A stretch of DNA of 59,181 bases from a bacterium (GCA_039933735.1 JBDTNM010000001.1:1-59181), one strand, 5' to 3'; positions 1,872-57,708 are shown, counted from the first letter of the stretch. The notes: generated by a model not told the origin, from the sequence alone. Translations and numbers: made by a program.

Positions 1872-1979
1872 GGGCTTGTCTCCATCGAAGTTTTGCTCTC
1901 GCACGAGAGAGCAGCGAACAACGATGATAGCACCGACCGCGAGCCTCTGACCGATGTGCAACGAATCTGCAACGCGAGA

Positions 1980-2636: not shown

Positions 2637-2726
2637 CGTGTGACGAGCCTAGTACCCTTCGCGCCAGACCAGAATCAGGTGGTCGCCGGATGGCGACCCG
2701 GTGAAACCCCGATGCGGAGAGTACCG

Positions 2727-23620: not shown

Positions 23621-26287
23621 CTACACAACCGGGAGGGTGGTTTTCGCGGAGGGACGCCTTCCCGATGTAAAGAACACTCGGCGGATCTGATCCAGGGCCA
23701 GGAAGACCGTGGCAGAGGCCGGGACCGCCAGCAACCAGACGGGATTCACGGCGTCCATTTCGAATACCCCATTGACGCCCGGTATGTAAATCAGCGCCAG
23801 CGCCAGCAAGAGTTCGAAGGCCAATCCGGCGGCGATCCAACGGTTCGACCAAAGGGATAACCGGGTCCGCAGAGAGCCGTCGCGCTGGGCGAAAAGGCAA
23901 CCGACCTGGCCACCCACGATGCAGAGAAAGGTCAGCGTGGCGGCCGCACTAGTCGTCGCATCGAAGTTCGCAAACGAATCGCCCGGTCGCCAGCCGGCCC
24001 AGAGGAAGCGGCCGAAGAATCCCGCCATGCCGAGCGAGGCTTCGATCGTCCCAAAAAAGAGGAACGTGCGCAGCGCCAGCCGTTTCGTCAATAGCGGCCG
24101 AGACGGGGGCTCTGGCGGAGCGGTCATGCTACCCCGAGAAGAAGGTTCGGCACCCAGGGCGAGCGCCGGCAAAAGGTCCGTCCCAACGTCGACAGCGAGG
24201 GCCTGGATGACGGCGAGGGGCAGCGGTACTGGAAGAAAGATGAAAATGAGGAAAGGAACCATCTCGGCGACGTTGCTGGTGAATACGTAGCTAATGAAGC
24301 GGCGGATATTCGCGGCGATCGACCGCCCTTCTTCGATACCCGTGACAATCGTCGTGAAGTTGTCATCAGCGAGGACGATGTCGGCCGCGTTCTTGGCAAC
24401 TTCAGTTCCGCGAAGACCCATCGCGACGCCAACATCTGCAGCGCGTAGGGCGGGAGCGTCGTTCACCCCGTCGCCGGTCATGACGACGACTTCGCCGGCT
24501 GCCTGCAGCACCCGGACGATACGAAGCTTCTGTTCGGGGTCGATTCGGGCAACGATGGCGTCACGCTTCAGGATGTCGCGAAGGCCGCTGTCCGGCATCT
24601 GGTCAATTTCCTGTCCGGTGACAGCCGGAATGCCATCCCAGGCGAGGCCAATCGCCCGGGCCACCGAGAGCGCGGTCGCCGGATGGTCGCCTGTGAGCAT
24701 GATTATGCGGACGCCGGCGTCGCGACAGGCCTGGATCGCCTCGGTAACGCCGGCCCGGGGCGGATCTGAAAACCGGACGATGCCGATCGGGGCGAGCTCG
24801 CTCTTCGTTGGCCCCGAAGCGAGCAAGATCACGCGGTCGCCGACGGAAGTGGCCTCCTCCATGCCTTTCACCAGAGGAGCGGGCATGTCGTCGCTGCCGA
24901 TGAGCTGCGTGACTTCCTCCGGAGCCCCCTTCGCGAAGGTGCGGTTAACGCCCGCAACTTCGCAGACCGTCACCATGTAACGGGCACGCGCGTCGAACGC
25001 ATCGCCGGTGATGCGTGGATTCTTCGCGACGATTTCGGCGGGCTTGGTGCCGTTTTCGCCCGCCCAGGCCCATAGCGCGCGGTCAATAGGGTCACCCGAT
25101 AGCGAGCCGTCGCCGCGTTCTTCGCAGTCATTGCAGAGGACCGCGGCAGCCAGCAATTCTTCTGACGGCTGTGACGACCCATCAAGCCCAGTAATGCCGT
25201 GAACGGTAACGGAATTCTCGGTTAGCGTGCCGGTCTTATCGGTGCAGATGACCGTCACGGACCCCACGATTTCGACTGCGGAAAGCCGTCTCACCACCGC
25301 GCCGCGTTCGGCCATTCTGCGGGCCCCGATGGCCAGGGAGACGCTCAGCGTAGGCAGCAAGCCTTCGGGGACGAGCGCAACGATTACGCCCGTGCCAAAA
25401 GTGAGCGCAGCGACGAACGAAGTATCTGTGAACACCGAAGCCAGGCCGAGCGTGGCTGTCCCGGAGAGAACGGCGACCGTCGCCGTGACGCGGGACAGCT
25501 GTCCAACCTGGCGCTCAAGAATGGACTCTCGGGCTTTCACACCTTCGACGAGGCCGGCGACCACACCGACGCTACTTGATACGCCGGTCGCGAAGACAAG
25601 CGCCGTCGCCGTCCCGCTCGCGACTCCCGCGCCTGCCGGGACGACGTTGCTTATTTCGCTGAGATGAAGGCTCCCGGGCCCGGAGCCAACCGCGGCCTCA
25701 GCGCGTTCAACCGGGGCACTTTCCCCGGTCAGCATCGAGAGATCGACCCGCAGACCTTCGCTCTGGAGCACCGAGCAGTCCGCCGGGGCAATATCACCCG
25801 CGCCGAGATGAATAACATCGCCCGGAACCAGGTCCGAAGCAGGGAGCACGACGAGGACGCCATCGCGCATCGCGCGAGCCTGTACGGCCACACTCCGCAA
25901 GAGCGCGTCAATGACTTGCTCGGCACGGTACTCCTGGACGAACGCAAAGACGCCGTTGAGGACGACCACTGCCACGACGGCGCCACCCAGCGCGGGAATT
26001 CCCGCCGCAAAGGCCAGCCCCGAAGCAAACCAAAGCAAAAGTGCCAGCGTGTGCGTGAACTGTGCGAAGAAAGTCCGGACCGGATGCGCCTTCTCAAGGT
26101 TGACGGGCTCGTTAGGCCCGAATTGGCGCAAACGGTTCTCGGCCTCGGATGCAGCAAGCCCCTGCAAGCCGGTTTCAAGCCGAGAAAGACGCTCGGATGG
26201 CTCCAGCCGAGAGAGCGCGGAAGCGTCGGCCGCTGGAACCGCAATGCCGTCTTTACCAGGCGTGCCACGCACCGGGGCTGGATTCAT
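23621..26287 (-). CDS. cation-transporting P-type ATPase (type II-like, Ca/Mg family)
   Basis: LTGESAPV (TGES), [12 protein letters not shown] (phosphorylation site), [23 protein letters not shown]-terminal [17 protein letters not shown] is the Cation_ATPase_N signature. Confidence 0.9.
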
Positions 26288-26373
26288 CCGGCCATTATGT
26301 CCCTAAGCGGACCACAAAGTGCGAGCAGGACGACTCATCGACAAGCGTGGCCGTTCTCAGACACAATCCACAG

Positions 26374-27436
26374 GTGCTGGCGAAGGTCCTTAGTTGCGCG
26401 GTGGTGGGCCTTGACGGCGAGCTAGTCGATGTCGAAGTCGACATCACGCGCTCGCAACTTCCGGGCACGACCGTCGTTGGTCTGCCCGATACGGCTGTCC
26501 AGGAATCGCGCGAACGCGTTCGGTCGGCCATCCGCAACAGCGGTCTGAACTGGCCCCCGAACAGCAAGGTGACGATCTCGCTTGCCCCGGGAGACCTCCG
26601 CAAAGAAGGCCCGGCGTACGACTTACCGATCGCGACAGGTGTGTTGCTCGCCTCCGGCCAGGTAGTCGCGGACGTCGCAGACGCTGTGTTCATCGGCGAA
26701 CTCGGGCTCACCGGCGAAGTCCGGCCGGTCCGTGGCCTGCTGCCGATGGTCATGCTCGCGGCCTCGCGCGGGATGAAGCGGGCGTTCGTGCCGGTCGACA
26801 ACGCTCCGGAGGCTGCCCTGGTCTCCGACATGGCTATCTACCCGGTGACGACGCTCGCCTCCGTGGCATCCCATCTGCTCGGCGCCATCCCTATCGACCG
26901 CTTCCAGCGTCCCACCGACAGTGCCGAACCCGAGTCTCCCCCAAACGTCACGAACTTCGCGGATGTCGTCGGCCAGGAGCATGTGAAACGGGCGTTGGAA
27001 GTGGCGGCAGCCGGCGGCCACAACATCGTCATGAAAGGCCCTCCCGGGAGTGGTAAGACGCTCCTCGCGCGGGCCGTGCCATCGATCCTTCCCCCGCTAA
27101 CCACGCCCGAAGCCATGGAAGTGACGCGCATTTACAGCGTCGCCGGCCTGCTTCCTTCGAACACCGGACTCGTCTCGAACCGGCCGTTTCGCGCGCCGCA
27201 CCACACGATTTCGAACGCTGGACTGGTCGGTGGCGGATCGATTCCGCGGCCCGGCGAGATAACCCTCGCTCATCGCGGAGTCTTGTTTCTGGACGAGCTC
27301 CTGGAGTTCGATCCGCGCGTTCTCGAAATGCTGCGCCAGCCAATTGAAGACAAGACGGTGACGATCAGCCGCGCAAAGCAGGCCGTCACGTTCCCCGCGA
27401 GCTTCATTCTGTGTGGAAGCTACAATCCATGTCCGT
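26374..27436 (+). pseudogene. comM: comM/yifB Mg-chelatase-like AAA+ gene, 5' ~350 codons only; truncated by insertion
   Basis: GTG 26374 gives [23 protein letters not shown]. Then [18 protein letters not shown], Walker A GPPGSGKT, Walker B VLFLDEL and ...YNPCPC. After ~27436 the frame continues without ComM-like sequence and the opposite strand encodes a recombinase. The C-terminal ~150 aa expected for ComM are missing. Confidence 0.8.
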
Positions 27437-29035
27437 GTCGTCAGTTTCTCCACAAGAGACGTTGGCGCCGAAGTTGTATTCCACCACGAGGCGAAGGTGC
27501 TGCTTCCCCTCGATCTCTTCCGTGTGGGCCGTCACGCGCTTCACGAGCAGCGTGAACAGGTCGATCCATTGCTCTTCCGAGAACCCCTCCTCGACCTTGT
27601 CCCGAAGCTGAGCGAGGAGGTCGTCTGGAACCGCGCTCCGATGGGACTTAGTCGGCCGCTCATCCGGAGTGAGTTCGACCAGGCGACGTTCCAGCGCTAC
27701 TCGGTCTTGCTCTAAGTCGGCCAACATCGAGACGATCTCGGCATCCGATACGTCCTCACTGACGGTCGCGAGTCGGAGTGTGCGTTTCTTCTGGGCTCCG
27801 AGGCTCAGGAGCTTGGATTGAACGATCAGGCGCTCCGTCTCACCGACTGCCTTCGACGGCTCGTCCGCCATCTCCACCACAAGGTCTTCAAGGACATCGC
27901 CCGGGAACAGCAGGAAAGCGCAGATGTCCCGTTGGATCATCGGTTCGATCACCGAGCCATCGATGCCCGCCGACGGGCAAAGGCCGTGATACCGAACGTA
28001 AGACTTCATGCGGCCATTGCACTTGTACCAGGACCGACCTCGCGACAGACCGCCGCTGTAATTCAAACCGCAATGAGCGCAACGAATCAGCGACCTCAAG
28101 AGATGCTTCGCGTGGGCAGCGTCGGGATTGCATTTTCGCCGACTTCGAATCGCGACCTGCGCCGCCTCCCACAACTCCTCGCTCACAATCGCGACGCATC
28201 TTCCGAAGATCACCTCGCGAACCGGCTTCGTGCCATCGCGTCGTTTCGGAGGATGCTTGCCGTAAGTCGTGGTGCCCTTATAGATGGGCTGGATTGCCAG
28301 CTCCCGAATCCGGGGCCCGCGCCAGGTGCCATCCGTCTTCTCCTTGCGTTTCCCGCGAAGCACCTCGCGACCATCCTTCCAGTAGGCCGTGGGAACCCCA
28401 AGGGAATTCCAGTAAACCGCGATCCGTTCCGGCGACCACTTTTCGACGGCCAGTAGTTCGTACATCCAACGAATCAAGCCGGCAGGCGACATGCCCTCCC
28501 AGAACGGTGCCTCGTCAATGACGTAGTGCGCGTTCTGCTTTCGCCCGGGCACGTCGAGGCCAAACGCGATGATCCCGCCGGTGTATCGGCCTTCGCGAGC
28601 AGCGCGCTCCATACCATCCCGAGAACGCTTCATGAAGGTTCTACGCTCGTGCGCGGCGAACGCCACTAGGATGCCATACATCAGCGGGTCCTCGACGCTC
28701 TCGCTAATCGAGACGACCTTCACCCCTACTCGCTCCAGGTCGCGGCGGACGATAAGCGGGTCGATGCCGTCGCGACCAAGCCGGTCGACCTTGTAGATCC
28801 ACAGTTCATCGAACTTGCCGCTTCGGGCATCGTCCAGGAGGCGAGCCCCGGCCGGCCGTTCGTCGAGGTCCAGCATTCCTGTGATGCCATCGTCGACGTA
28901 GCGCTCGACGACCTCCACATCTTCCTGAAGCCCGATACGCCTTTGGAGTTCCCCGTATTGGGTGAGAATCGTCTCTCTCTCGCGCTGGTCCACGGTCGAA
29001 ACGCGTTCGTAGGTGGCGATGGTCCGAGTGGTCAT
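27404..29035 (-). CDS. large serine recombinase
   Basis: The N-terminal resolvase domain has the catalytic Ser ([18 protein letters not shown]). It is followed by a recombinase domain, a zinc ribbon ([10 protein letters not shown]...WYKCNGR) and a coiled-coil C-terminus. Length 543 aa. Confidence 0.9.
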
Positions 29036-29358: not shown

Positions 29359-31113
29359 CTAACTATTGTTCGTCGGGCTCGGAATGATCTCCTCGTTGAG
29401 ACGCACAACATCGCGAGCCTTGGTGCCTACGATGAGGCTGTCGCCTTGCTTCCAAAGACCCCGATTGTCGTCTACGAACGTGTGGTCGAATCGATGGTCC
29501 GGGCTCAGGCCGAGGCGAGCGCGCAGAGTCGACGTGCGCACGTTTGGAGACCCCTTTTTCAGTTGGTCGTAGAGGAACTTGACCACTCGCCCTTCATCCC
29601 CCGATAGCACGTAGTGCTTGCCGCGCCATGAGAGGTCCGCGAGGTCGTCGGACAGGTGGAAGCGCCGACCTTGGTTCAACGCAAAGCTGGTCGGCGCCGC
29701 GGCCTGCATGAGTGAGATGAGCGACCTAGCAGGGAGCGCTCCGGTTGCGATTTCCGTTGAGTGGGCGACGACCTGTTCCCTCATGACGCGTACCACTCCG
29801 TCGGCGTGACGCCTCAGTGTCGCAATCAGCGCCGCTGCGGTTCGTCCGCTGTCGCGGTCATCTGGAAGGATGGCGTCCCCACACTCCTCGTGGTCAGCCC
29901 AGAATTGCTCTTCATTAGAATCAAGGATCTGACCTGCGAAACGCACGAACGATACGGGTACAGTCACGTCGATACCGTCTTTAAGCTCGTCTGCAAAGAT
30001 GTCGACGGCATATCCATCTGGGGAATCGTAGTCGGCCAATCCCGCAGCGAGTGTGGCGAAGCGGCGACCGACGCACTGGCTGCAAACGCCGCAGTGCTTG
30101 ATGCTCGCCGGACGGCGGTAGGGAGACTGGCAGGAAACCGTTTCCCGAATTAGAGTCGGCCCGGCGTATTTGGCAACCATCGAAGCGACGTCCTCACGAG
30201 TTCGATAGAGGAGCGTGTTTTCGACGACGGGACTAGCCGATCCCCAAATAGCGGCGGACAGCTGATTGAACCGCCAGATAAACTTGGGGTGGGTCGACCG
30301 GCTCGCGCGCGCTCCGACCAATTGCTCGTTGATCGGAATGTTCAAACTCACGACGCCGTTGTCGCTGGCGAGAACCCTTCGAATTCCGAGGGCACTTGCC
30401 AGGGCTGCCGCGATGGCTACGAACAAGAACGAACGAGTTCTCTGCGTGGACTCTGGCGGATCGCCAGACTTTCGGTTAATCCACGGCGACGCAGTGGGAA
30501 ACCACCAAGTCGGAAACTTCTCCTTTAGGCGGTCGATCACAGCGTTCTGGTGGTGAGCGACGACCGGGGACGGACGGTGACTGACGAGGAGCGGCCTTGC
30601 CCCCTCCTCGGCACAAACGGCGAAAGTGCTAGCAGCGCTGTCGAGCCCGCCCGAGATGAGCGCGACCACGTCGGGCGGCCGCGGATCAGCCCAATCGAGC
30701 GCTGCTTGTTCCGCCGCGACGCGAACGGTGGACCGCGGTTCGAAGTGAAAATCCCAGTAGTCCTCTGAAACAAAATTCAGGGCCTGGATAAGCGCGCCTT
30801 TCACCGCGGGATTTGACCAGGTCGCCACGTGCGTCACTGGCACAGCTAATCGCATGTCGCGTCGCCAATCTTCCAGCATCACGTCGCTCTCACCACCGCG
30901 GCTCACTTCCTGGTCCGCGCAATAGACGTAGCTCGCAATTCGAACGAGGTCGTGGCCTAGGTCGTCAACCTCGGCCGGGGCGATGGACTCGAATCCGTCC
31001 AGCCGGATGCTGATATTCGACGCGAGGCCGTCCGAGAGCAGCGAATGCCGAGGAATATCGCGCCACTCGGAGGGGACCGCCGCCCCGTCGCACGAAAATG
31101 CGGCAGACCTCAC
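29359..31113 (-). CDS. enlarged QueC-like PP-loop ATPase (QatC/Cap9-like?), 584 aa
   Basis: PP-loop VVALISGGLDSAAS. About 200 aa later comes HCGVCSQCVGRR, the CxxCxxCxxR zinc motif typical of QueC. About 150 aa N-terminal and 210 aa C-terminal could not be assigned. GTG start overlaps the upstream stop (GTGA). Confidence 0.75.
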   Translation of the reverse strand: MRSAAFSCDGAAVPSEWRDIPRHSLLSDGLASNISIRLDGFESIAPAEVDDLGHDLVRIASYVYCADQEVSRGGESDVMLEDWRRDMRLAVPVTHVATWSNPAVKGALIQALNFVSEDYWDFHFEPRSTVRVAAEQAALDWADPRPPDVVALISGGLDSAASTFAVCAEEGARPLLVSHRPSPVVAHHQNAVIDRLKEKFPTWWFPTASPWINRKSGDPPESTQRTRSFLFVAIAAALASALGIRRVLASDNGVVSLNIPINEQLVGARASRSTHPKFIWRFNQLSAAIWGSASPVVENTLLYRTREDVASMVAKYAGPTLIRETVSCQSPYRRPASIKHCGVCSQCVGRRFATLAAGLADYDSPDGYAVDIFADELKDGIDVTVPVSFVRFAGQILDSNEEQFWADHEECGDAILPDDRDSGRTAAALIATLRRHADGVVRVMREQVVAHSTEIATGALPARSLISLMQAAAPTSFALNQGRRFHLSDDLADLSWRGKHYVLSGDEGRVVKFLYDQLKKGSPNVRTSTLRARLGLSPDHRFDHTFVDDNRGLWKQGDSLIVGTKARDVVRLNEEIIPSPTNNS

Positions 31114-31892
31114 CGCTGCGATTCCAACTTCAGCTCACTACGCAGCTTTTTGAGGGCCTGCGCGACGAACGCGTGGGCCTCGTCTCGTGAAATCTCCCCC
31201 TTCGATTCCCATTGGTGCTTGCTGTACCAGTCACCCGCGAAGTTGCGAAGGATTCGTGCGGATTGATGCGCGTGCCGGTCAACGTCGTCGAGAAGCCGCT
31301 GCGTGTCGGCAACGCTGGCGAGCGCTTGGCCCGTACCCAGCGAGTTGGCGGCCTCACGGTCCAGGAAGTAGGTCAGGGTGCGTGAGAGGAAGTCGCCGAA
31401 GTAACGGTGCGATGCACGTTCGAAGTGTGACTGCTTCGACAGCTCGCGCACGGACTGCTTAAGGCTCCCCGCAGTCGAATTAAAGAGGCCCGGCTGGCCC
31501 TCGAGCAGTTCCGCGTTGAGGGTGCGGGTAAGTGCGAGAGCTGCGATTCGACCAAAGACGTTCCTACTTGGTTCTCGTTCAAGTTCTGCGCGGACTCGAT
31601 CGGCGACCATCGAAACGAACGCCAGGCCCGAGGTCGTGTCGTTCGCCGCTATGCCGAGGCGATTGACCTCGTGAGCGAAGTCACCCGACCTTGATGCCCA
31701 CGATATTCGTACCAAGAGCCAAAACGGAAAGGAGAATGCTTCGTCCGATGCGAGTTCCCGAAGCTGCCGCTCGGCGGCATGAATCGTCGCGGCCGAAACC
31801 TCACTGGTTCGAACGCTGTTTCCCGCAAGGAGCCCTACTAGCTTGGACCATCGCAACGTCTTGGGAAGGCGCCCCAGCCTCACATGTCCCAC
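31110..31892 (-). CDS. hypothetical 260-aa protein, coupled partner of the QueC-like gene
   Basis: GTG start at 31892 with GGAG 4 nt upstream; product begins M-G-H-V-R. No motif recognised. Largely helical-looking composition. Its stop overlaps the downstream start. Confidence 0.6.
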   Translation of the reverse strand: MGHVRLGRLPKTLRWSKLVGLLAGNSVRTSEVSAATIHAAERQLRELASDEAFSFPFWLLVRISWASRSGDFAHEVNRLGIAANDTTSGLAFVSMVADRVRAELEREPSRNVFGRIAALALTRTLNAELLEGQPGLFNSTAGSLKQSVRELSKQSHFERASHRYFGDFLSRTLTYFLDREAANSLGTGQALASVADTQRLLDDVDRHAHQSARILRNFAGDWYSKHQWESKGEISRDEAHAFVAQALKKLRSELKLESQR

Positions 31893-32013: not shown

Positions 32014-32955
32014 TCACACGCCGATCGCCTCCGCCACCTTCCACCAACTCGCGTCCTCGGCGACCTCCAACCGCCGCAGATAGACCGACGTGACAGCCAG
32101 CGAACTGTGGTCGAGGAACTGGCTCACCTTCTCGACCGAATCACCCGCATCGCGACGCAACTTGGCCGCCGAATGCCGCAGTACATGGAATCCGCTCGAC
32201 GGAAGCTCGGCATTCGCTAGGTATCGCTTGAACCTTGCGTAAGCGACCGGCTGGCTCACTCCCTCCGGCTTCGCTCCCGCCTGCCACAACGACTCCTCAG
32301 GGGCCATTCTCTCCAGCCGCTTCCCGCAGTCCTGCACCGTACGCTGGATTGCATCGAACGCCGGCCGAGGAAGCTCTCTCCGCCCATGCTTCCCTCCCTT
32401 GCCTCGGTACGAGTAGTACGCCCGCTCGCCATCCCATTCGATGTCGCCGGCCTTGAGGTTCAGGACCTCGCTCCGGCGCCGACCCGACAGCACCAATGTG
32501 AGGATGATCGCCCGGTCCCTTCGTCCGCCAATGTCGTCCGGAATGACGGCCAGCAGCCGTCGAACGTCCTCACCGCTCAGCCCGCGAGCCGGCGCCGGCG
32601 TGTGCTTCGGCCGTTCCAGCCGCTCGCATGGGTTCGAGGTCATCAGGTCCATCCGAATGAGGAACCGAAAGAACGAGGAGATCGCAGCGATGCGAGATCC
32701 GACCGTGAGCGCGGCCGGCTCCTTCCCCGAAACGCCTCGGCCGAAGCAAAACGCCATGGCCTCAGCGGTCACGACCTGGTCGGGTGTCTTGTGCACACCG
32801 CCGTAGAAGGCGTTGAGAATGCGCGAGTAACTCTCGACCGTTCTCATCGAGCCGGTACGTCGGTACTTCTCAGCCAGGAAGGCCTGCATCGCGGACTCCC
32901 ACTTCGTGGGGTCCAGAGGTTCGGCGAGGAGGTGGGTACGCGAGTTCGTGTTCAT
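32014..32955 (-). CDS. tyrosine recombinase / phage-type integrase (XerC/D-like)
   Basis: ORF 32014..32991; ATG 32955 preferred (MNTNSRTH). N-terminal SAM-like core-binding region, then GRRRSEVLNL (Arg I), HVLRHSAA (HxxR) and LDHSSLAVTSVYL (His/Tyr nucleophile region). Confidence 0.85.
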   Translation of the reverse strand: MNTNSRTHLLAEPLDPTKWESAMQAFLAEKYRRTGSMRTVESYSRILNAFYGGVHKTPDQVVTAEAMAFCFGRGVSGKEPAALTVGSRIAAISSFFRFLIRMDLMTSNPCERLERPKHTPAPARGLSGEDVRRLLAVIPDDIGGRRDRAIILTLVLSGRRRSEVLNLKAGDIEWDGERAYYSYRGKGGKHGRRELPRPAFDAIQRTVQDCGKRLERMAPEESLWQAGAKPEGVSQPVAYARFKRYLANAELPSSGFHVLRHSAAKLRRDAGDSVEKVSQFLDHSSLAVTSVYLRRLEVAEDASWWKVAEAIGV

Positions 32956-33041
32956 CCGTGACACTAACGCGTAGGTTCGGCACAGGTGCAACCCGAAAAT
33001 TCAGTATAACAAATTGACCGACGAATTAGTCTCTATCTAGA

Positions 33042-33692
33042 ATGCCGCACCTGAGATTGTGGGGCGGCCCAGTGGAATTTCCATTTCATTTTAGCGGAGT
33101 CACTGCCACCGGAGCGGTGGCTTTCGGAGCCCTCGTAACGGCAACTCTCGCGTCCCTGGCGTCCCTCGCTTCTGCAATTTACACGCGTCAGGCGAATCGG
33201 CAGACGTCGAAACAGTACGCCTACGCCACGCTCATGAGTCTAAGGGCTAAGTTCGACGGCGACGAAATGGTCGCAGTCCGGGTCGCCACAGCAAAGCACG
33301 TGCTGAGCAATTGGCCGAAGGGTGCTCAGACTCCGAACTACGTACCCGACGCCGACCACCTTGTTGACCATTTCGACATGCTCGGCTTTCTGCTCCGTCA
33401 GAAAGTGCTCGATCTCGAAATGGTGGTGGTGGATATGTGCAGCCCAATCACAACCTACATGGCAACGCTCGATAGATATATCTCGGACTCGCGTAGCGAG
33501 GACTTCACCATCTGGCAGGATGCGGTCGCTCTGAATCAAAAGATGCTTCAGGCCGACGCGAAGGCACGTGGCCTAAAGACCGCGGCTCTGGCCGTCCCGG
33601 ACGAAGACGATATGAGGAAGTACATGAAGGAGGAGGCGGCGCACCCGAACGCGACCAAGGCTGTTGGCACAAACCGCAAGCCCGGGACCTGA
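33042..33692 (+). CDS. membrane-anchored hypothetical protein (DUF4760-like layout?)
   Basis: One N-terminal TM (GAVAFGALVTATLASLASLASAIY), then a soluble domain with HFDMLGFLLRQKVLDLEMVV. The DUF4760 resemblance is from memory only. Confidence 0.55.
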   Translation: MPHLRLWGGPVEFPFHFSGVTATGAVAFGALVTATLASLASLASAIYTRQANRQTSKQYAYATLMSLRAKFDGDEMVAVRVATAKHVLSNWPKGAQTPNYVPDADHLVDHFDMLGFLLRQKVLDLEMVVVDMCSPITTYMATLDRYISDSRSEDFTIWQDAVALNQKMLQADAKARGLKTAALAVPDEDDMRKYMKEEAAHPNATKAVGTNRKPGT

Positions 33693-33829
33693 CCACGATG
33701 CCTACTTCGTGTTTCGTACAATGCGACAGCGATCGAGATCGGCGCCACGTGCGCGATGGAACATCGCGGCTCCTTTGCTGGTCTAGCGTTTGAGCGCATG
33801 ATTCGTGGCTTCGTACACCAGAGGTCGCC

Positions 33830-34543
33830 ATGCCGCTTTCACAGGCCAATTTCGAACGACTCATCATCGGACCGCAACCTGCGTCTGAGGAACATCGACG
33901 GCAACTCGCCGACTTCTTGAAGGCTGCTGGCGCGGTCGCGGCAGTTCATTCGGATGCAGCCGTCAAATCGAGTGCAGCAGGATATCAAGTAGGCATTCGG
34001 CAAGAGGTCGTGATGCTCTTGGGATGCCACTCGTTCAACCTTTTCATCGAACTCATCTCTGCGGTCATGGCCGGACGGTTCGATGCAGCGTGCTACTTGG
34101 CGCGCCCAATCTGGGATGTCGGACCGATCCTCGGATACGTAGGCAACGACGAGATTTTGGCACGAGCTTTTCGGCGGGGAGACGAGATAACAGCGTCGTC
34201 CGCGAGGAAAGCAATGGTCGAACAACTCCGTCGGTTCGATCCGGATTCCGCACGCGACGTCGATCGCATTTTGTCGGAGGACTTTGGGCCAGCCCAGGAG
34301 ATGAGCCACGTGAACCTGATTCACGTTTCGAAACTGGTGGCAGCCACCGGCCCGAGTTCGAAGACCGCGACTCTCGGCGGCCATGTCGATCGTGAGGAGG
34401 CAGTTGGATTGCTTCGCGTTGCTGCGCTCGGCGAGTCACTCAGCCTCACGGCCCTGCGCCAGGTCGGCGGATTTGGCAAGGCTTGGGATGATCGATGCGT
34501 ACGAGCGCTCGGCAAGCTACTGGAATGGAGCAAGTCAGCGTAG
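33830..34543 (+). CDS. hypothetical protein (DUF5677-like?)
   Basis: 237-aa all-helical-looking protein: HSFNLFIELISAVMAGRFDAACYLARPIWDVGPILGYV. The family assignment is tentative. Confidence 0.5.
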   Translation: MPLSQANFERLIIGPQPASEEHRRQLADFLKAAGAVAAVHSDAAVKSSAAGYQVGIRQEVVMLLGCHSFNLFIELISAVMAGRFDAACYLARPIWDVGPILGYVGNDEILARAFRRGDEITASSARKAMVEQLRRFDPDSARDVDRILSEDFGPAQEMSHVNLIHVSKLVAATGPSSKTATLGGHVDREEAVGLLRVAALGESLSLTALRQVGGFGKAWDDRCVRALGKLLEWSKSA

Positions 34544-34588: not shown

Positions 34589-35542
34589 TTGCAGCGGACC
34601 ATGCCCGATTTATTGCCTGCTGTCGTAGCCAATACCGACCCACGTTGGTTCGAGCACTTCAGGCCGTCTGACAAGCTCCGTATCGTGGATGAGGTCAACT
34701 TCTGGCGCCCCTCGGCGCAGAGCCAGTTCCGTGCCCTGCAACTCGGGGAGCCGCTGTTTTTCCGACTTAAGCATCCAGTGAACGCAGTCGCAGGATTCGG
34801 GTTTCTGGCGGTCGCGATGAGCATGTCAGTCGAGATGGCCTGGGAGTTCTTCGGAGAGAGGAACGGGGACCCGACGCGGGCACGCTTTGAGTCCCGGATC
34901 GTCGCGTATCGCGACCGATTCGAACGGCGTCCGCAGGACCATCTCAGCTGCCTCGTCCTCCGCGACGCTGTCTTTTTGCCGGAAGCCTACTGGGTGCCTT
35001 GGCGAGCCGAGCAGGGATGGAAACCGAACATCGTGTCCTACAAAGGTTACGACCTGGCTCGCGCGCCCGGGGAGTCCCTAGCGGGATTGCTTAATGAAGT
35101 CCACCCGGCCCCGGTAGCTGACTTCCTGCCCGAGTTCGAACTCGACCAGCGGCGAAGGGCCGAAACCGTCGCAGTCCAGCGAGAAGGACAAGGGGCCTTC
35201 AGGCTGCGATTGCTCAATGCCTATGGGCACTGTGCCGTTACCGGCGAACATGCTGTACCAGTGTTGGAAGCGGCGCACATTACCCCATACCTGGGGCCCC
35301 GCTCCAATCATCTTCAGAATGGCTTAATCCTACGTTCCGACCTTCATCGACTCTACGACGCCGGTTATGTGACCGTCACACCTGATCTCCATTTTGCTGT
35401 CAGTGGCAAGCTCCGTGAAGAGTTCGAGAATGGCAAAGCCTACTACGCAATGGATGGCCAACGATTAACCGTCCCTGCTGACAGCCGTGCACAGCCGAGC
35501 CGATCGGCTTTGCTTTGGCATGCCGAAAACGTGTTCAAATAG
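34589..35542 (+). CDS. HNH (HNH_2-type) endonuclease with N-terminal PUA/EVE-like domain; putative modification-dependent restriction nuclease
   Basis: C-terminus: CAVTGEHAVPVLEAAHITPY...NGLILRSDLHRLYDAGYVTV, the HNH_2 signature. N-terminus: NFWRPS...EPLFFRLKHP..VAGFGF, resembling PUA-like reader domains. Confidence 0.75.
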   Translation: MQRTMPDLLPAVVANTDPRWFEHFRPSDKLRIVDEVNFWRPSAQSQFRALQLGEPLFFRLKHPVNAVAGFGFLAVAMSMSVEMAWEFFGERNGDPTRARFESRIVAYRDRFERRPQDHLSCLVLRDAVFLPEAYWVPWRAEQGWKPNIVSYKGYDLARAPGESLAGLLNEVHPAPVADFLPEFELDQRRRAETVAVQREGQGAFRLRLLNAYGHCAVTGEHAVPVLEAAHITPYLGPRSNHLQNGLILRSDLHRLYDAGYVTVTPDLHFAVSGKLREEFENGKAYYAMDGQRLTVPADSRAQPSRSALLWHAENVFK

Positions 35543-35553
35543 GTTCGTGATAC

Positions 35554-36751
35554 ATGGCCGTTCGAGACTTCGCCTTTGATGAACTTCCAGACGCAGATCT
35601 GATAGTGGATGCCGTCTATAAAGGTGGCGTGGCCGGGAACGCGGGTGATGACCCCCTGGCCCGGTTGCTTCCTTGCGGCAACCAGGGAGGGTTCCGTTTC
35701 AAGCGAGCTCCTAGCGGGGAGGTCGCAATGGTCGTGCTGTTCACCACGCTCGGTCACGAAGACTGGCCAGACTCGCTCGACTTCGAGCGGGGACTCCTGA
35801 CGTACTATGGCGACAATCGCAGCCCAGGCCGTGAGTTGCACGACACGCCCCGTCGAGGAAATCAGCTACTCCGGGAGTTCTTCGCAGCGGCGCATTCCCG
35901 ATAGTGTCGGGAGGGCGACTGTTCCGCCCTGTTTCGTGTTCAGCCGCGGGGCGATCGGACGAGACGTTGTCTTTCGGGGTATTGCCGTTCCTGGAAGCGA
36001 ATCTGTCGAACCCCGCGATCAACTCGTCGCAGTCTGGCGCGAAAACAAGGGCCAACGATTCCAGAACTACCGCGCGGTCTTCACCATCCTCGACGCGCCG
36101 GTCGTGGAACGGGAATGGCTTAATCTGCTCGCAGGAGGAGTCGGAACTTCAAGCCTTCCACGAGCCTGGCAGAGGTGGCGAACCACTGGCCGGTATTTTC
36201 CACTTCGAGCACCAAAAACCTTGGACATTCGAACGCGCGATGAACAGCAACCTCCAGATGTTGGTGGGGCAACGCAATTGGCGCTGATTAGAGAATATTT
36301 CGCGGAAGACCACACCGCGTTCGAACCTTGTGCAGCAAGACTATTCCAGATGGCCGAACCAGGACTCGTCGACTTCGAAGTGACAGCGCGAGTCCGCGAT
36401 GGCGGTCGAGATGCCATAGGCCGACTCCGTGTTGGGGCGCATGCGGATGGGATCTTTTTGGATTTTGCACTCGAAGCGAAATGTTACGCACCCGGTAACT
36501 CAGTCGGCGTCCGAGAGATGTCCCGACTCATCTCAAGACTCAGGCACCGGCAATTCGGGGTGCTTGTCACGACCTCTTTCGTGGATCGCCAGGCTTATGA
36601 GGAAGTGCGCGACGATGGACACCCTGTGGTCGTCGTCGCCGCAAGAGACATTGTCGGCATTCTTCGAGAGCACGGTATATCGACGCCGCTTGAGACTAGG
36701 GCATGGCTCGAAACCAACTTCGCACCGTCCCGACGAAACCATCCCGAGTAA
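35554..36751 (+). pseudogene. SRA(YDG)-like domain plus PD-(D/E)xK (Mrr-like) restriction endonuclease, split by a 1-nt frameshift
   Basis: Frame 1 (35554..35904) carries LLTYYGDNRSPGRELHDTPRRGNQLL, an SRA-like YxG...GN motif. Frame 2 (to 36751) carries VRDGGRDAIG...IFLDFALEAKCY, i.e. a D...ExK nuclease core. The two parts join if one C is removed from the CCC run at 35897-35899. Confidence 0.65.
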
Positions 36752-37129: not shown

Positions 37130-38344
37130 CTACCGAGCGATGCCGCCGTGATGCGAGCAGGTCCCGCTGCCGGAGGAATTGGACACCGAGCCGTCTCTGC
37201 ATTGAGTCGGCCCGCCACCGTTCCCGGGATACGGGATGGTCGGTCCGGTCGGGACAGAAGATCGGGTCGGTGTCCGTGTTGGCGAGGGCGCCAATGCCGC
37301 CCCTCCTGCGGAGCCACCGGCACTCCCGGACGACGCCGAGGAAGGAACGAGAATGACCGTCCCGGCGTAAAGCGCTTTCGTCGGCCCGGACAACCCGTTG
37401 GCTTCATAAAGCGCTCCCGGAGTTAGCCCGAACCTCGCCGCGATTCCTGTCCAGCTATCCCCCGAAACAATCGTATAGCTGCGCGTGGCGGCTCCAGCGA
37501 CCGTGGCGATCCGCACAACAGGTGTCGGCGTCGACGGGCGAGCGGTGCTGTACGTGGTGGGTGCTGGCTCAGCGGCACGCGCCGGTTCGTCGCGGGCCTC
37601 GTTAGAAACGTACACGCCGACGCCGATCGCCGCGGCGACACCGGCCCACGCCACCCCCTGGAACACGGGCTTCAGGCGCCGCCAAATCGGATGCGCTTTC
37701 TTAGTCACGACGATTGTCAGCACCTCTCCGTTGCGGAGGGGTAGGTCGAACGTCGCCTCAGATCTAGGCCCTGGTCGCTGAGCGGCCACGAATATCGCGC
37801 GCTTGAGCCGAAGAACTTCGGCCCGCACATCCGCCTCATCCTCTTCGTCCTTGCCCTTGACTTTGGCGACCACATCAGGTGTTAGAACGCCTTCGACGCC
37901 CGGGAACCCCTGCAGCCAATGTCCCCGTTGGCGCGTCAGCGTTGATTCATGCTCAGCGGTAACCTTAGCGAGTTCGTTCGGTTCGCTGATGCTGATTGTC
38001 CTTTGCGAGACGCGCTGTCCCGGTCGCCAGAGCAACCCACCGAGGGCTGTTCGGTCCTGGACAGAAAGGCGTGGCGCGACGATCTTCGCAACTTTCTCCC
38101 GCGTTGCCTGCGTCATCCTTCGGGTGCCCGATCGCCACTCCGCGTATGCCTGCTCCGCCGTGTTCGTCCCGAACTGGCGCTTCCAATCGGCAAAGGCACG
38201 AACCTGATCCGCTGAGTTGAATGCGAGGAACTTCGCGACAACGAAGTCGAAGGCTGGTTTCAGTTCACCGCCGTAATCGGCGGGAGATGACCACCCACGG
38301 TACGAATAGCTGCTTCGACGGTATCGGTATCGAGCCAATTCCAA
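37130..38344 (-). CDS. membrane protein with extracellular LysM and DUF3761-like domains
   Basis: ~240-aa cytoplasmic N-terminus, then TM (GVAWAGVAAAIGVGVYV). LysM: YTIVSGDSWTGIAARFGLTPGALYEANGL. C-terminal CRDGSVSNSSGSGTCSHHGGI is the DUF3761 motif. Confidence 0.7.
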   Translation of the reverse strand: MELARYRYRRSSYSYRGWSSPADYGGELKPAFDFVVAKFLAFNSADQVRAFADWKRQFGTNTAEQAYAEWRSGTRRMTQATREKVAKIVAPRLSVQDRTALGGLLWRPGQRVSQRTISISEPNELAKVTAEHESTLTRQRGHWLQGFPGVEGVLTPDVVAKVKGKDEEDEADVRAEVLRLKRAIFVAAQRPGPRSEATFDLPLRNGEVLTIVVTKKAHPIWRRLKPVFQGVAWAGVAAAIGVGVYVSNEARDEPARAAEPAPTTYSTARPSTPTPVVRIATVAGAATRSYTIVSGDSWTGIAARFGLTPGALYEANGLSGPTKALYAGTVILVPSSASSGSAGGSAGGAALAPSPTRTPTRSSVPTGPTIPYPGNGGGPTQCRDGSVSNSSGSGTCSHHGGIAR

Positions 38345-38796
38345 CGCTCCCCGCGATGCAACAGTCTAACATTACCCATATCGCCCGACCGGCCCCCAGG
38401 CAGTGCCGCCTTCCGCCATGGTCCGGGGCCCAATGTCCAAGGGTCGTTTCCGCCGCGCCCAGAGACTCGCCGCAACCTGAGCTCTCATCTCGGACGTACG
38501 GATGCAGTTGCTCGCTTAGCTGGCCGCGGCCTTCTTCTCCGCCTTCTTCGCCTTCGTGGTCCACCTTCGGCTTGTTGGTCTTTCGCGGCTTTTCTTGTCC
38601 CTTTGCCATCGAATTGCCTTCCAGCCGCACAACGGCGACGAACGTCTTTCAAACTAGCCACGCGCAAACCGTGTCGTCAGCGCAGCGAGATCTCCGCCCG
38701 ACCACCGTCCTGAGGAAAGGTCGGAGAGCCGGAAACGTCTGCAAGGTTGATTCTCCGGGCTGCCTTACTTCGCGTCGTGAATGTGTCGAGTTTGCA

Positions 38797-39573
38797 ATGA
38801 GCGCTATTCGTGCGGATGGCAAACTCCTACCATGGGCTAACCGACTTGGACTCGCGCCCAATACCAAGCGGCGGATTCCGGATCGGAGCGACTCAGTGAA
38901 AAGACCACGACTGTTGCAATCAGCCACTGCCCTGGCGGGTGTGTTTCTCGGTGTAACCGCTGTCGGATTCGCCGTCGCGGCAGACAATCCAGTCTCCGGA
39001 CAAGCCGCCCCTACGCTCCCGGTGCGAGCCAGGGCTCCGCAACTTGCCGCAGATAGTGCCTCAGGCAGCCAGGCGACAGCCACTAACACCGTGACGCTCA
39101 CTGCCGGTACTCCCTCCAGCACTCCTACATCAGGCACCCCGACCGTTTCTGCGACTCCGACAACTTCTGTTACACCCTCGGTGACGCCGACGCCCAGCAG
39201 TACGGCGACCATCACCCCAACTTCTTCGCCGACCCCCACCGCGACAGCGACCGCCACTGGCGGAGCCTGCGGCGGTGGCACGGCGACGATAACCGCTCTG
39301 GACAAGGTGGGAGAGGTGGTAACGTTGAATGCGTCCGGAAACCTCACCGGCTGGAAGTTGGTCAGCGTGGCTGGCAGCCAGACGTTTAATTTCCCTGACG
39401 GGTTCGTCGCCGGCGGAACGGTGCAGATCAAGTCGAATTCGCCGGTGTTCGCCAGCACGCCGTCCATGCTCTGGTGGTCCACCGCTAACTTGTGGAACAA
39501 CTCCTCGAATGACGACGCCCAGCTCTTCAATTGCAGCGGTCAGCTAGTGCAGACGTTCGACGATGGGGACTAA
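38797..39573 (+). CDS. secreted Thr/Pro/Ser-rich protein with C-terminal lamin-tail domain (LTD)
   Basis: ORF 38221..39573; ATG 38797 preferred. Signal/TM LLQSATALAGVFLGVTAVGFAVA, then a TPS-rich linker. LTD: ITALDKVGEVVTLNASGNLTGWKLVS...WNNSSNDDAQLFNCSGQLV. Confidence 0.7.
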   Translation: MSAIRADGKLLPWANRLGLAPNTKRRIPDRSDSVKRPRLLQSATALAGVFLGVTAVGFAVAADNPVSGQAAPTLPVRARAPQLAADSASGSQATATNTVTLTAGTPSSTPTSGTPTVSATPTTSVTPSVTPTPSSTATITPTSSPTPTATATATGGACGGGTATITALDKVGEVVTLNASGNLTGWKLVSVAGSQTFNFPDGFVAGGTVQIKSNSPVFASTPSMLWWSTANLWNNSSNDDAQLFNCSGQLVQTFDDGD

Positions 39574-39598: not shown

Positions 39599-40915
39599 GT
39601 GGGGCGGCACCCACTCCGCGTGCTGACAGCACTTCTCGGCGTAGCTTTGGGCGTCAGCGGCCTGCTAGCGTCGGCGCCTTCGGTCGCGTCCGAGAACCCT
39701 GCGCTCCCTTACCGCGTCCCTGTACCGATGATTGCGGCAGATGCTGCGAAGTCTTCGAATTCGTTCGCGATTGACTTCTTGGACGTGGGGCAGGGTGACG
39801 CAATTCTCGTGTCGGCGAACGGTCAGCGACTGCTCGTTGATGGCGGCCCGAGCCGCGACCGACTGCGCGACCGAGTTCAGTCGCTCGGCGTCACCGACAT
39901 TGATGCAATCCTTGTGACGAACCCAGACGCCGACCATATACGTGGCCTTATCGAAGCGTTTGCGCTTTTTCAGGTGGAGACCTTTTATGCCAGCGCATCT
40001 ACCAATCCGAGCGCGACTTACTCTGAACTTCTTGCCGCCGCCGCTTCGGAACCAGGCATCAAAATCGTGACCTTGAGCCGTGGAGCAACCGTTCCCCTTG
40101 GTGGACTTCAGTTGAACGTTCTTCATCCACAAACGATCAGTGGCGACCGCAACGACGACTCAATAGCGATGCGGCTCAGTTGCGGGAAAGTGGCGGTGCT
40201 CTTGATGGGTGATGCCACCACGACTTCCGAGGCGGAGATGATAAAAGCCGGGCTGATCGGCAAGGTGGACGTAGTGAAAGCGGGGCACCATGGTTCGCGG
40301 ACTTCCTCGGGGGATGCCTTCGTCAACGCGGCGAAGCCGTCATACGTCGTGTTCTCAGCGGGTCGGGACAATTCGTACGGCCATCCTCACCCGGAAGTGG
40401 TGGCGAGGTATCAGGCGGCTGGCGCGCAGGCGATCTACACCGATACAACGGCAGCGGACGACACCGTGGTCATGTCGTCGGACTGCTTGACGGTGACCTT
40501 CTCGAAGCCAACGCCAGGAAGCCCGCCGGTCACACCTATACCCACGGGACCAGCGCCTCCTGGAACCCCGCCGCCTGCTCCCAGCGCCACGGTCATTCCT
40601 GGCGGGGTGTGCGGGGGCGCGACAGCGACCATTGTTGGCGTGGACAAGGTAGGCGAGGTCGTCACGCTTTCGGCCTCTGGGAACCTCACGGGCTGGAGGT
40701 TGGTCAGCCTAACCGGGAGCCAATCCTTTGATTTCCCTTCCGGATTCGTGGCGACAGGAACGGTGCAGGTGAGGTCGGCGGTCCCGATCTTCGCCAACAC
40801 CGCGACGACGTTGTGGTGGTCAACGTCGAACGTCTGGAACAACTCGTCGAACGACGACGCAGCTCTTTACAACTGCGTCGGACAGCTGGTGCAGACCTTC
40901 GATGACGGTGAGTAA
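39599..40915 (+). CDS. secreted ComEC/Rec2-like metallo-beta-lactamase-fold hydrolase fused to a lamin-tail domain
   Basis: GTG start and signal peptide. FLDVGQGDAILV, LVTNPDADHIRG (HxHxDH-like), KAGHHGSRTS, SYGHPH. Pro-rich linker, then an LTD roughly 70 percent identical by eye to that of the preceding gene. Confidence 0.8.
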   Translation: MGRHPLRVLTALLGVALGVSGLLASAPSVASENPALPYRVPVPMIAADAAKSSNSFAIDFLDVGQGDAILVSANGQRLLVDGGPSRDRLRDRVQSLGVTDIDAILVTNPDADHIRGLIEAFALFQVETFYASASTNPSATYSELLAAAASEPGIKIVTLSRGATVPLGGLQLNVLHPQTISGDRNDDSIAMRLSCGKVAVLLMGDATTTSEAEMIKAGLIGKVDVVKAGHHGSRTSSGDAFVNAAKPSYVVFSAGRDNSYGHPHPEVVARYQAAGAQAIYTDTTAADDTVVMSSDCLTVTFSKPTPGSPPVTPIPTGPAPPGTPPPAPSATVIPGGVCGGATATIVGVDKVGEVVTLSASGNLTGWRLVSLTGSQSFDFPSGFVATGTVQVRSAVPIFANTATTLWWSTSNVWNNSSNDDAALYNCVGQLVQTFDDGE

Positions 40916-57575: not shown

Positions 57576-57708
57576 AGGCGTCAGGGTAAGCGAAGAGCGC
57601 TCAGATTGCTGCGCGGCCCCGCACCAACCGTAGTTCGTCAACGTGACCCAACGCGCCGGTTCGGCGATTCGAATGTTTAGCACTTATTAAGTAGAGTCTG
57701 CCTGCTGC

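Follow-up and report, generated by a model that had tools for sequence, protein, structure and literature searches.

A two-gene relative of the QatBC core of QatABCD, probably a defense module, on a mobile element that interrupts comM

The gene pair and its coupling

We analyzed a stretch of bacterial DNA of 59,181 nucleotides (nt) (GCA_039933735.1 JBDTNM010000001.1:1-59181), which is called the window in this report, and focused on a pair of genes on its minus strand between positions 29,359 and 31,892. The first gene of the pair encodes a protein of 260 amino acids (aa), referred to here as the partner, and the second encodes a 584-aa enzyme that resembles QatC. QatC and QatB belong to QatABCD, an anti-phage system reportedly described by Gao et al. 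in 2020. The closest known system to our pair is the QatBC core (9zee/9zef and 9vlk/9vll; PMC13279940, PMC13376578, PMC13639016). An earlier note on this DNA had placed the pair between a tyrosine integrase gene and a large serine recombinase gene, inside the DNA that disrupts comM and ~3 kb from two nuclease genes, and this description was confirmed. The features of the pair are as follows.

31110..31892, minus strand: partner gene, 260 aa, all-alpha protein of the "MGH" family, GTG start at 31892
31848..31892, minus strand: partner codons 1-15, MGHVRLGRLPKTLRW, the presumed acceptor N-terminus (Gly2 after removal of Met)
31110..31113, minus strand: GTGA stop/start overlap, read from the sequence, which couples the partner and enzyme genes
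29359..31113, minus strand: QatC-like enzyme gene, 584 aa, GTG start, stop codon included
29776..31113, minus strand: enzyme residues 1-446, complete QatC-homologous body (N-terminal extension, QueC Rossmann core, C-terminal helical extension)
30637..30654, minus strand: enzyme residues 154-159, PP-loop SGGLDS, the ATP pyrophosphate-binding motif, invariant in 120/120 family members
30286..30303, minus strand: enzyme residues 271-276, substrate-site loop S-R-S-T-H-P (T-R-T-T-H-P in canonical QatC)
30061..30132, minus strand: zinc site C328 ... C341-G-V-C344-S-Q-C347-V-G-R350-R351
29362..29775, minus strand: enzyme residues 447-584, junction motif LPxxSLISL (~460-468), linker and extra C-terminal domain (~480-584, tail class c0)

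The two open reading frames (ORFs) overlap by the 4 nt GTGA, in which the TGA stop codon of the partner (31112-31110) shares its letters with the GTG start codon of the enzyme (31113-31111); both the coordinates and the tetranucleotide were as previously claimed. The start codon of the partner at GTG 31892, which gives a protein beginning with M-G-H, was supported because the homologues are 255-265 aa long and are covered at ~100%, and because 222 of 232 of them begin with (M/V)GH. In a public protein collection, the same gene is represented by a 201-aa product (P0001) that begins at a downstream start codon and has lost the conserved MGH N-terminus. Mis-called starts have likewise been reported for QatB (PMC13279940). 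Such mis-calls would mask the key motif of the partner family. When the operon was scanned for a sigma-70 promoter and a terminator, nothing rose above the shuffled expectation.

The QatC-like enzyme and its tails

The enzyme possesses the PP-loop stretch VVALISGGLDSAAS at residues 149-162 and the zinc knuckle HCGVCSQCVGRR at residues 340-351. These had been read as motifs of the QueC type, and indeed they align with Pfam QueC, with the QatC models of PADLOC and NCBIfam, and with QatC in the PDB. The match to Pfam QueC was 26 bits, above the gathering score and partial, covering residues 217-353 only. The PADLOC QatC model matched at 5.4e-56, and the QatC chains of the PDB matched at 5e-35 (9vlk_A) and 1.6e-28 (9zee_B). 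The score against the NCBIfam QatC model NF041925 was 197.3 bits, which is under its equivalog cut-off of 280.

We then compared the enzyme family with canonical QatC by hhalign, using an alignment of 120 homologues of the enzyme (A3) and, as the canonical reference, nine QatC proteins from annotated plasmid qatABCD operons. Residues 1-446 of the enzyme aligned with residues 1-443 of 449 at a probability of 100% (E 5e-58). That is, the enzyme aligns with QatC from end to end: its ~150 N-terminal residues are the N-terminal extension of QatC, and residues ~360-446 are the C-terminal helical extension, which forms the base of the QatB interface in canonical systems (PMC13279940). The earlier note had regarded about 150 N-terminal and 210 C-terminal residues as unassignable. 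This has to be corrected, since the N-terminus and ~85 of the C-terminal residues are standard QatC extensions and only ~140 residues are extra.

Libby et al. gave the signature of QatC as D63; D(x)4R...WxR; DxW/YxxxF; RxRxxxF/Y; HP; P(x)4T[KR]; and Y376 (PMC13329287). The equivalents in the window enzyme are D55; D67-R72...W83-x-R85 (spacing +3); D118-x-W-xxx-F124; S154-G-G-x-D158-S159; R225-x-R227-xxx-F231; H275-P276; T305-R306; the four cysteines; R350-R351; and Y368. Among the 120 family members, the signature residues are conserved at 97% or more at most positions. The signature Pro ahead of T305-R306 is Thr in the window enzyme and Pro in 82% of the family. The residues of the zinc site and the PP-loop are all invariant or conserved at 98% or more, the zinc-site cysteines and R350 being invariant, and the zinc-site pattern fits the QatC variant C(x)nCGxCxxCxxRR (PMC13329287). 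The counterpart of SGGLDS in Pseudomonas aeruginosa QatC, S156/D160/S161, is essential for defense (PMC13279940).

The substrate-site loop is where the enzyme departs from QatC. Alignment with 9zee_B places T278 on S271 and T280 on S273, and canonical plasmid QatC proteins carry STRTTHP where the window enzyme has SRSTHP. Both threonines (P. aeruginosa numbering) are invariant and essential in canonical QatC. The window enzyme thus lacks the two invariant loop threonines; the replacement by Ser is conservative and keeps the hydroxyl group. Among the 120 family members, position 271 is Ser in 80% and Thr in 20%, and position 273 is Ser in 90% and Thr in 7%. A hidden Markov model (HMM) of canonical QatC scored the canonical proteins at 474-617 bits and the window-type family at 166-224 bits; the family therefore forms a separate lineage within the QatC clade. 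From these comparisons, we consider that the 584-aa protein is almost certainly a QatC-clade enzyme.

Could the enzyme instead be a metabolic QueC (for preQ0 and queuosine) or a dpd-type DNA modification enzyme? Its weak match to the Pfam QueC model (26 bits over residues 217-353) points that way, as does the name "7-cyano-7-deazaguanine synthase" that several database sources give to its relatives. The enzyme shares with canonical QueC (PF06508 cluster 1) the Rossmann PP-loop fold, SGGxDS and a Cys4 zinc site with CxxCxxC. It differs from canonical QueC in being more than twice as long, in being carried on a mobile element, and in its remodelled active site of the QatC type: the substrate motifs are replaced, and neither YPDC nor VPxRN was found when the enzyme sequence was read directly. 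QatC is also unable to complement queC (PMC13329287). A que operon context is likewise missing, because queD, queE, folE, tgt and dpd genes are absent from the scanned ORFs of the window and from 13 Pfam-annotated contexts of relatives, in line with what the earlier note had reported for the neighborhood. We therefore regard a metabolic or dpd-type enzyme as very unlikely.

The C-terminal part of the enzyme has no counterpart in QatC. When 162 family members were each aligned by domain with the window enzyme, homology mostly ended at ~residue 470 and was followed by unrelated tails of 100-250 aa. Clustering of the tails gave at least 8 multi-member classes plus singletons, as follows.

c0 (the class of the window enzyme), 60 members: ~100 aa, no Pfam or PADLOC match
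c1, 29 members: DpnII/MboI-type restriction-endonuclease fold, PF18742 above gathering score, 5.3e-7
c2, 29 members: no Pfam family at or above gathering score
c3, 19 members: no Pfam family at or above gathering score
c4, 7 members: no Pfam family at or above gathering score
c5, c6 and c7, 3, 2 and 2 members: no Pfam family at or above gathering score
c8, 1 member (P0132): TIR domain, PF13676 (TIR_2), 8e-13

The DpnII-MboI and TIR domains alone were recognized in the tails by Pfam and PADLOC. The tail of the window enzyme had no match in either collection, even member by member, and no Pfam family recurred in 26 tail sequences. Over residues 1-476, two family members, P0133 (c0) and P0135 (c3), share 81% identity as far as the conserved motif LPPNCLIRLIAG, beyond which the two proteins have no similarity. 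As judged from these alignments, the tails are swapped between close relatives at a fixed junction near residue 470. This swappable module after ~residue 470 distinguishes the window enzyme from QatC. A conserved core with alternative C-terminal modules is also seen in the Cap effectors of CBASS, in Thoeris and in Avs, with TIR or PD-(D/E)xK fusions; the difference is that here the conserved core is itself a presumed protein-modifying enzyme of the QueC family, a kind of fusion that was not found in the searchable literature.

Residues 463-584 of the window enzyme were modelled by AlphaFold2 (AF2) with 25 homologous tails, and the model (pLDDT 78.5) has the order β-β-β-α-α-α-β-β, a topology compatible with an OmpR/PhoB-type domain, in which a sheet and three helices precede a C-terminal β-hairpin wing. 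In a Foldseek search of the PDB, the top list consisted mostly of OmpR/PhoB-type winged helices (RpaA, NsrR, CpxR, VicR, YycF, PhoP and PhoB), with a best E of 0.28, which is not significant, and TM values of 0.38-0.51, up to 0.51/0.61. The tail is probably a winged helix, and probably a nucleic-acid-binding one, but we take this prediction from the model as a lead and not as a result; the chance that the tail really binds nucleic acid seems about even to us. By eye we suspected a winged-helix module common to c0, c2, c3 and c4, and this was dropped, as hhalign of c0 against the others gave P 0.05-0.1. Between the tail classes in general, hhalign showed no relation except a weak c3-c4 signal (27%).

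The partner protein

As a single sequence or as a profile, the partner had no match in Pfam, PADLOC, NCBIfam or the PDB sequences. It belongs nevertheless to a large family. An exhaustive search of 1.84 billion proteins gave 1,723, 1,216 and 562 relatives (50%-identity cluster representatives) at E <= 1e-3, 1e-10 and 1e-30, respectively, and the family comprises 102 clusters at 90% identity.

The first 15 residues are the best-conserved segment of the whole protein family. In an alignment of 34 partner sequences (A1), G2, H3 and P10 are invariant, and M1, R5, L6, G7, L9 and W15 are conserved at 90% or more. Among the full-length members, the (M/V)GH beginning (222/232) amounts to 96%, with P10 in 92% and W15 in 95%. 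The N-terminal motif of the partner can be written MGH[VIL]RLGxLP...W, as against MGTS...PL[VI]PSW in QatB, where the MGTS start was found in 120/120 canonical sequences. With its Gly2, a Pro and a Trp shortly after it, and a predicted unstructured N-terminus, the partner resembles QatB in part. In an AF2 model (pLDDT 84, pTM 0.87), the partner has 11 helices, and residues 1-14 are unstructured. QatB has been described as a globular protein of ten helices whose N-terminal tail, 30-90 aa long, is disordered; the predicted architecture of the partner is broadly in line with this except for the length of the tail. The gene order is also alike: QatBC, too, has a helical protein of ~260-295 aa just upstream of the enzyme, with overlapping stop and start codons.

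We compared the partner and QatB profiles by hhalign. With shallow alignments (34 vs 9 sequences), the probability was 29.7%. With deep alignments (140 vs 69 sequences), it was 87.4% (P 3.7e-6, 96 co-linear columns), whereas the control comparisons of the partner profile with QatA, QatC and QatD gave 0.4% or less. The deep alignment matched partner residues 60-161 with QatB residues 123-219. After renumbering, the matched QatB segment includes I164-E182, which lie at the contact with QatC in the structure from P. aeruginosa (PMC13279940). We take the partner for a probable, highly diverged homologue of QatB that lies outside the QatB family as now defined; it differs from QatB in failing the PF28083, PADLOC and NCBIfam models, in its MGH in place of MGTS, and in its shorter N-terminal tail. 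Thus, of the proposal that the pair is a QatB/QatC-like core, the QatC half stood with a full QatC body (probability 100%), and the QatB half needs correction, the partner being a remote homologue at best (87.4%). As a whole, the reading in the earlier note was supported once the domain boundaries and the standing of the partner had been corrected, and none of the computational grounds that it named for its own refutation was borne out.

Published work offers two precedents for the modification of such an N-terminus. Cap9 of type IV CBASS conjugates a deazaguanine to the N-terminus of its partner CdnD (Wassarman et al., Science 2025; 10.1101/2025.04.06.647259), and the adduct called NDG was found on Gly2 of QatB by liquid chromatography-tandem mass spectrometry in a modified GTSKAY peptide (PMC13639016). 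The statement in the earlier note that defense QueC-like enzymes conjugate a deazaguanine to a partner N-terminus is borne out by these two studies. In addition, the G2D substitution of QatB abolishes defense (PMC13279940, PMC13639016), and so do mutations of the PP-loop in canonical Qat (PMC13279940). The window enzyme resembles Cap9 as a QueC-family PP-loop enzyme, and Cap9 acts on the Gly2 alpha-amine of an M-G-... partner in which Gly2 is essential. On the other hand, Cap9, at ~185 aa, is a QueC of minimal size and retains the canonical Tyr/Asp binding 7-carboxy-7-deazaguanine (CDG), whereas the window enzyme belongs to the remodelled QatC type and has large extensions. The Cap9 system further requires three other components, a CD-NTase, Cap10 (TGT-like) and an effector. 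None of the three was found among the Pfam-scanned neighbors in the window or in the 13 annotated contexts of relatives, and those 13 contexts hold no que or TGT gene either. By analogy with both systems, the partner is quite likely to be the protein substrate of the enzyme.

The nature of the adduct is less clear, and we put the odds that it is NDG specifically at slightly below even. The combination of MGTS to MGH in the partner with TRTTHP to SRSTHP in the enzyme could reflect either an altered recognition of the acceptor or a different acyl substrate. One may go further and suppose a defense module with a different chemistry altogether, in which the partner receives a non-NDG group, or in which the substrate is not a protein and the partner serves as scaffold or effector. 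The serines in place of the threonines that are invariant in QatC, the MGH acceptor, and the lack of que genes in the window fit this supposition; moreover, the reaction of canonical QatC was not reconstituted in vitro, and the authors raised a distinct modification (PMC13279940). However, Ser for Thr is a conservative change and Thr persists at position 271 in 20% of the family, the remaining signature residues of QatC are all kept, and Gly2 is invariant in the partner. NDG was also found on canonical QatB despite the same remodelling of Tyr/Asp to Thr (PMC13639016). Taken together, we consider a different chemistry improbable.

Distribution, surroundings and proposed role

A pattern scan of 185,579 species genomes yielded 54 loci from at least 11 phyla, with a patchy spread. 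The taxa include Chloroflexota/Dehalococcoidia (among them Dehalococcoides mccartyi), Acidobacteriota, Myxococcota, Desulfobacterota, Alphaproteobacteria (Hoeflea, Devosia, Magnetospirillum and Mesorhizobium), Gemmatimonadota, Armatimonadota, Nitrospirota, Ignavibacteriales, Vampirovibrionales and Parcubacteria. Cultured carriers include Hoeflea sp. Naph1 (NZ_CP177286) and Magnetospirillum sp. SS-4. Plasmid p1 of Leptospira noguchii IP1709037 (NZ_CP091938) also carries the pair, and RefSeq labels both of its proteins (WP_243818872/3) "hypothetical protein"; tblastn of the partner against plasmids gave nothing, and it was the HMM that showed the Leptospira plasmid protein to be a family member. 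Canonical Qat is, in contrast, 92% Pseudomonadota (PMC13434339), while the pair occurs chiefly in Chloroflexota, Acidobacteriota, Myxococcota, Alphaproteobacteria and others.

In 44 of the 54 loci, a full-length partner gene is followed directly by the QatC-like ORF, usually with a 4-nt overlap; the other loci are contig-end truncations or decayed copies. Locus L001 (8001-8953) has an intact partner followed by only a 58-aa remnant, next to a type I restriction-modification (R-M) system. In L002 (8940-10494), L025 and L052, the QatC-like gene is broken up into 2-3 ORFs, and the partner gene is split in L043, L046 and L052. These fragmented copies could be pseudogenes or frameshift errors of long reads. 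The loci whose enzyme has a restriction-endonuclease tail (L077) or a TIR tail (L078) have the same overlapping arrangement with a partner of 260/261 aa, and no QatA or QatD. Beside the TIR-tailed pair, L078 holds a divergent trio (89-3409) of a PNP_UDP_1 protein (636 aa), an AAA_18/cytidylate-kinase-like protein and an HD_3 phosphohydrolase; this nucleotide-metabolizing trio could be another defense system.

HMMs of QatA, QatB and QatD, built from the nine canonical operons and able to recover those operons at E 1e-58 to 1e-263, gave zero matches, both in the 59-kb window and in ~50 related loci taken together with flanks of 10 kb. The earlier note had suggested that an ATPase and a TatD partner were lacking, and this agrees with the absence of QatA (a KAP NTPase) and QatD (TatD) near the pair in all of these loci. 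As to its question whether the pair is always alone and always on mobile elements, the two genes are adjacent in 44/54 loci, and a recombinase lies within 10 kb in 26/35 loci.

These data also bear on whether the pair is a decayed remnant of qatABCD that has lost qatA and qatD. The strong matches to QatC models and the order of a small protein gene overlapping a QatC gene, as in qatB-qatC, are what such a remnant would display. Neither the window nor the relatives has a match to QatA or QatD, however, which means that we are not looking at a four-gene system in decay; QatB, too, is without a match in the same loci, the enzymes form a separate score class (166-224 vs 474-617 bits), and the pair has its own partner family with its own N-terminal motif, an added C-terminal module and a different taxonomic range. 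We regard the idea of decay as effectively refuted.

In the published surveys, only ~34% of the QatC cluster of PF06508 neighbors qatA or qatD, and a survey anchored on QatD, in which 98% of the operons were canonical, came upon no natural QatBC-only form. No earlier description of two-gene or effector-fused QatC variants was found in the searchable literature; the two-gene family is not described in the four 2026 Qat structure/function papers, the PF06508 survey or the Cap9 paper. Within that literature, the pair family is a large, widespread and so far undescribed two-gene relative of QatABCD.

From these results, we propose that the pair is a self-contained, mobile relative of the QatBC core of QatABCD that works as a standalone defense module, and we give this reading a probability of about 0.6. 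An anti-phage or anti-mobile-genetic-element (MGE) role in the broad sense appears likely. QatBC alone protects against lambda and P1 (PMC13279940, PMC13434339), and the chemistry and logic of the pair are probably those of QatBC. That is, methionine aminopeptidase would remove Met1 of the partner and expose Gly2, and the short flexible N-terminus would enter the active site of the enzyme. The enzyme would adenylate a carboxylate, most likely CDG from the queuosine pathway of the host, and move it to the Gly2 alpha-amine, giving an N-terminal nucleobase-protein conjugate; the Thr-to-Ser changes of the loop and His3 of the acceptor could mean a different adduct. The modification of the partner would then arm or regulate the complex during infection.

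The fused tail would be an output or targeting device, which is a nuclease or a TIR (NADase) in relatives. Nuclease and TIR domains are classical effectors of abortive infection or degradation. The winged-helix-like tail of the window enzyme would most plausibly bind nucleic acid and either target the complex to DNA or sense foreign DNA. It is plausible that the extra tail stands in for QatA/QatD, but only for the sister proteins with nuclease or TIR tails. We also speculate, tentatively and with the odds somewhat against it, that the pairs make up a large immune family in which a modifying enzyme is fused at a fixed junction to interchangeable outputs, namely nuclease, TIR, winged helix and at least five folds of unknown kind, and in which the conjugation of the MGH partner, possibly non-NDG, directly gates the effector. 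If this were true, the family would be the simplest natural "deazaguanylation-controlled" immune switch.

Several results weigh against the proposal of a standalone defense module. On the side of the partner, the N-terminal tail is ~14 aa as compared with 30-90 aa in QatB, and the weak partner-QatB alignment gives no visible sign that the acidic patch through which QatB contacts QatC is conserved. The PADLOC QatB models (PDLC02211-13) gave nothing at E<=10 for the partner, while genuine QatB matched at 2.5e-141; PF28083 was found on all canonical QatB and on 0/102 partner-family proteins, NCBIfam QatB had no match, and a PDB sequence-profile search with the partner returned no QatB. Foldseek of the partner model against the PDB and BFVD found nothing below E 0.1; this null is uninformative on QatB, because the fold library, which may lack QatB, ends on 2026-04-08 and the QatBC papers date from April-May 2026. 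On the side of the enzyme, the window tail is not readily recognizable as an effector, and its match to winged helices falls short of statistical significance (best E 0.28). As for the genomic setting, the scanned ORFs of the window include no que genes as a source of CDG, the pair is on only 3 IMG/VR contigs and in 0 of 50,697 phage genomes, and its very tight linkage to recombinases could mean an element-related role and not phage defense.

To weigh this last point, the surroundings of the pair have to be considered. The main features in the window are the following.

32014..32991, minus strand: tyrosine integrase, directly upstream of the pair, Pfam Phage_integrase 1.5e-17
27404..29035, minus strand: large serine recombinase, directly downstream of the pair, at the element edge, Pfam Resolvase, Recombinase and Zn_ribbon_recom
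26149..27439 (ORF to 27555), plus strand: 5' part of comM (ChlI + Mg_chelatase), interrupted by the element
34589..35542, plus strand: HNH_2 nuclease, 317 aa, ~3 kb from the pair
35554..36751, plus strand: AspBHI/Mrr-type methyl-directed restriction endonuclease, frameshifted, ~3 kb from the pair

The Mg_chelatase match of comM stops at profile position 168/207, and the frame diverges after NPCPC at nt 27424-27438; the break at ~nt 27439 is the exact end of the serine recombinase gene. Searches of the 59-kb window for the 3' half of comM, for att-like repeats and for tRNA genes found none of them. Either the distal part of comM is lost, or the window does not define the far boundary of the element.

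Among the relatives, a serine recombinase or a tyrosine integrase lies within 10 kb of the pair in 26 of the 35 loci that span 15 kb or more, often at 0.1-5 kb. Other neighbors are type I/III R-M systems, type ISP, PIN/Phd and MazE/PIN toxin-antitoxin pairs, and phage-like genes. In two loci from Dehalococcoidia, L067 (16796-17926) and L069 (17390-18577), the terminal serine recombinase overlaps the 3' end of dnaN by ~100-150 nt, which suggests that these elements integrate at dnaN, whereas the window element sits in comM.

It may be, then, that the pair serves the mobile element itself, by regulating its excision, integration or maintenance or as an addiction or exclusion module, with the modification of the partner as the switch. 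The frequent nearby recombinases are often co-oriented with the pair, and the order of integrase, partner and enzyme is the same in the window, L006, L009, L079 and L080. A serine recombinase module adjoins the pair in L002, L067 and L069-L071, and L002, L067, L069/L070, L079 and L080 show a counterpart of the whole window arrangement, with integrase, pair and, at the element edge, serine recombinase; the position at the edge, as in the window, L067 and L069, and the DNA-binding winged-helix look of the window tail would suit such a role as well. Nevertheless, no recombinase lies within 10 kb in 9 of the 35 loci, cores up to 81% identical carry different tails, and the nuclease and TIR tails are typical of immune effectors. 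The only characterized relatives, QatBC, are anti-phage (PMC13279940, PMC13434339). The linkage to recombinases does not discriminate between the two readings, because defense systems are commonly cargo beside MGE recombinases. We think that an element-serving role, the main alternative, is unlikely, and we retain the standalone defense module as the preferred reading.

If that reading is right, the two-gene family would be a natural minimal version of the QatBC core without QatA and QatD. In the nuclease- and TIR-tailed sisters, cleavage of DNA or loss of NAD+ could read out the modification of the partner directly; these members have readable outputs and therefore could answer what the modification of QatB does. 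The MGH/SRSTHP combination set against the canonical MGTS/TRTTHP offers a ready-made comparison of specificity. Protein-targeting QueC enzymes would also reach well beyond Pseudomonadota, to Chloroflexota (including Dehalococcoides), Acidobacteriota, Myxococcota, candidate phyla and a Leptospira plasmid. The family is missed by current annotation, that is, by the PGAP equivalogs, the QatB Pfam family and the system-level detectors.

Some further observations were made in the window. The C-terminal half of the HNH_2 nuclease resembles the restriction-endonuclease model for binding of phosphorothioated DNA, NF045808 (54.6 bits, cut-off 180), and this gene is a second nuclease of the modification-dependent type beside the AspBHI-like gene. 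The latter is split into two ORFs in different frames with a 98-nt overlap: 35554-35904 corresponds to positions 3-114 of PADLOC mREase_II (5e-44) and 35807-36751 to positions 118-391 (8.8e-110). Either the gene is a pseudogene or the split comes from a sequencing error. The plus-strand region 33042-34543, which separates the integrase from the nucleases, encodes a DUF4760 protein (216 aa, just under the Pfam cut-off) and a 237-aa protein for which Pfam, PADLOC and NCBIfam gave no match. This region has the lowest G+C of the region (0.57-0.60 vs 0.61-0.64) and may be further unrecognized cargo of the island.

Farther from the pair, the radical-SAM gene at 50835-51620 was considered as a QueE for the supply of CDG and was rejected, as it belongs to the Rv1681 family. 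A 300-nt direct repeat of 71% identity (39257-39556 and 40599-40898) falls in the C-terminal lamin-tail-domain (LTD) regions of the adjacent genes 38221-39573 and 39599-40915, the latter of which has a metallo-beta-lactamase domain; the two LTD genes appear to share a paralogous C-terminal domain. Finally, a 233-aa ORF on the minus strand at 56982-57683 partially matches the chloramphenicol phosphotransferase CPT model (NF033114, 107 bits, cut-off 250).

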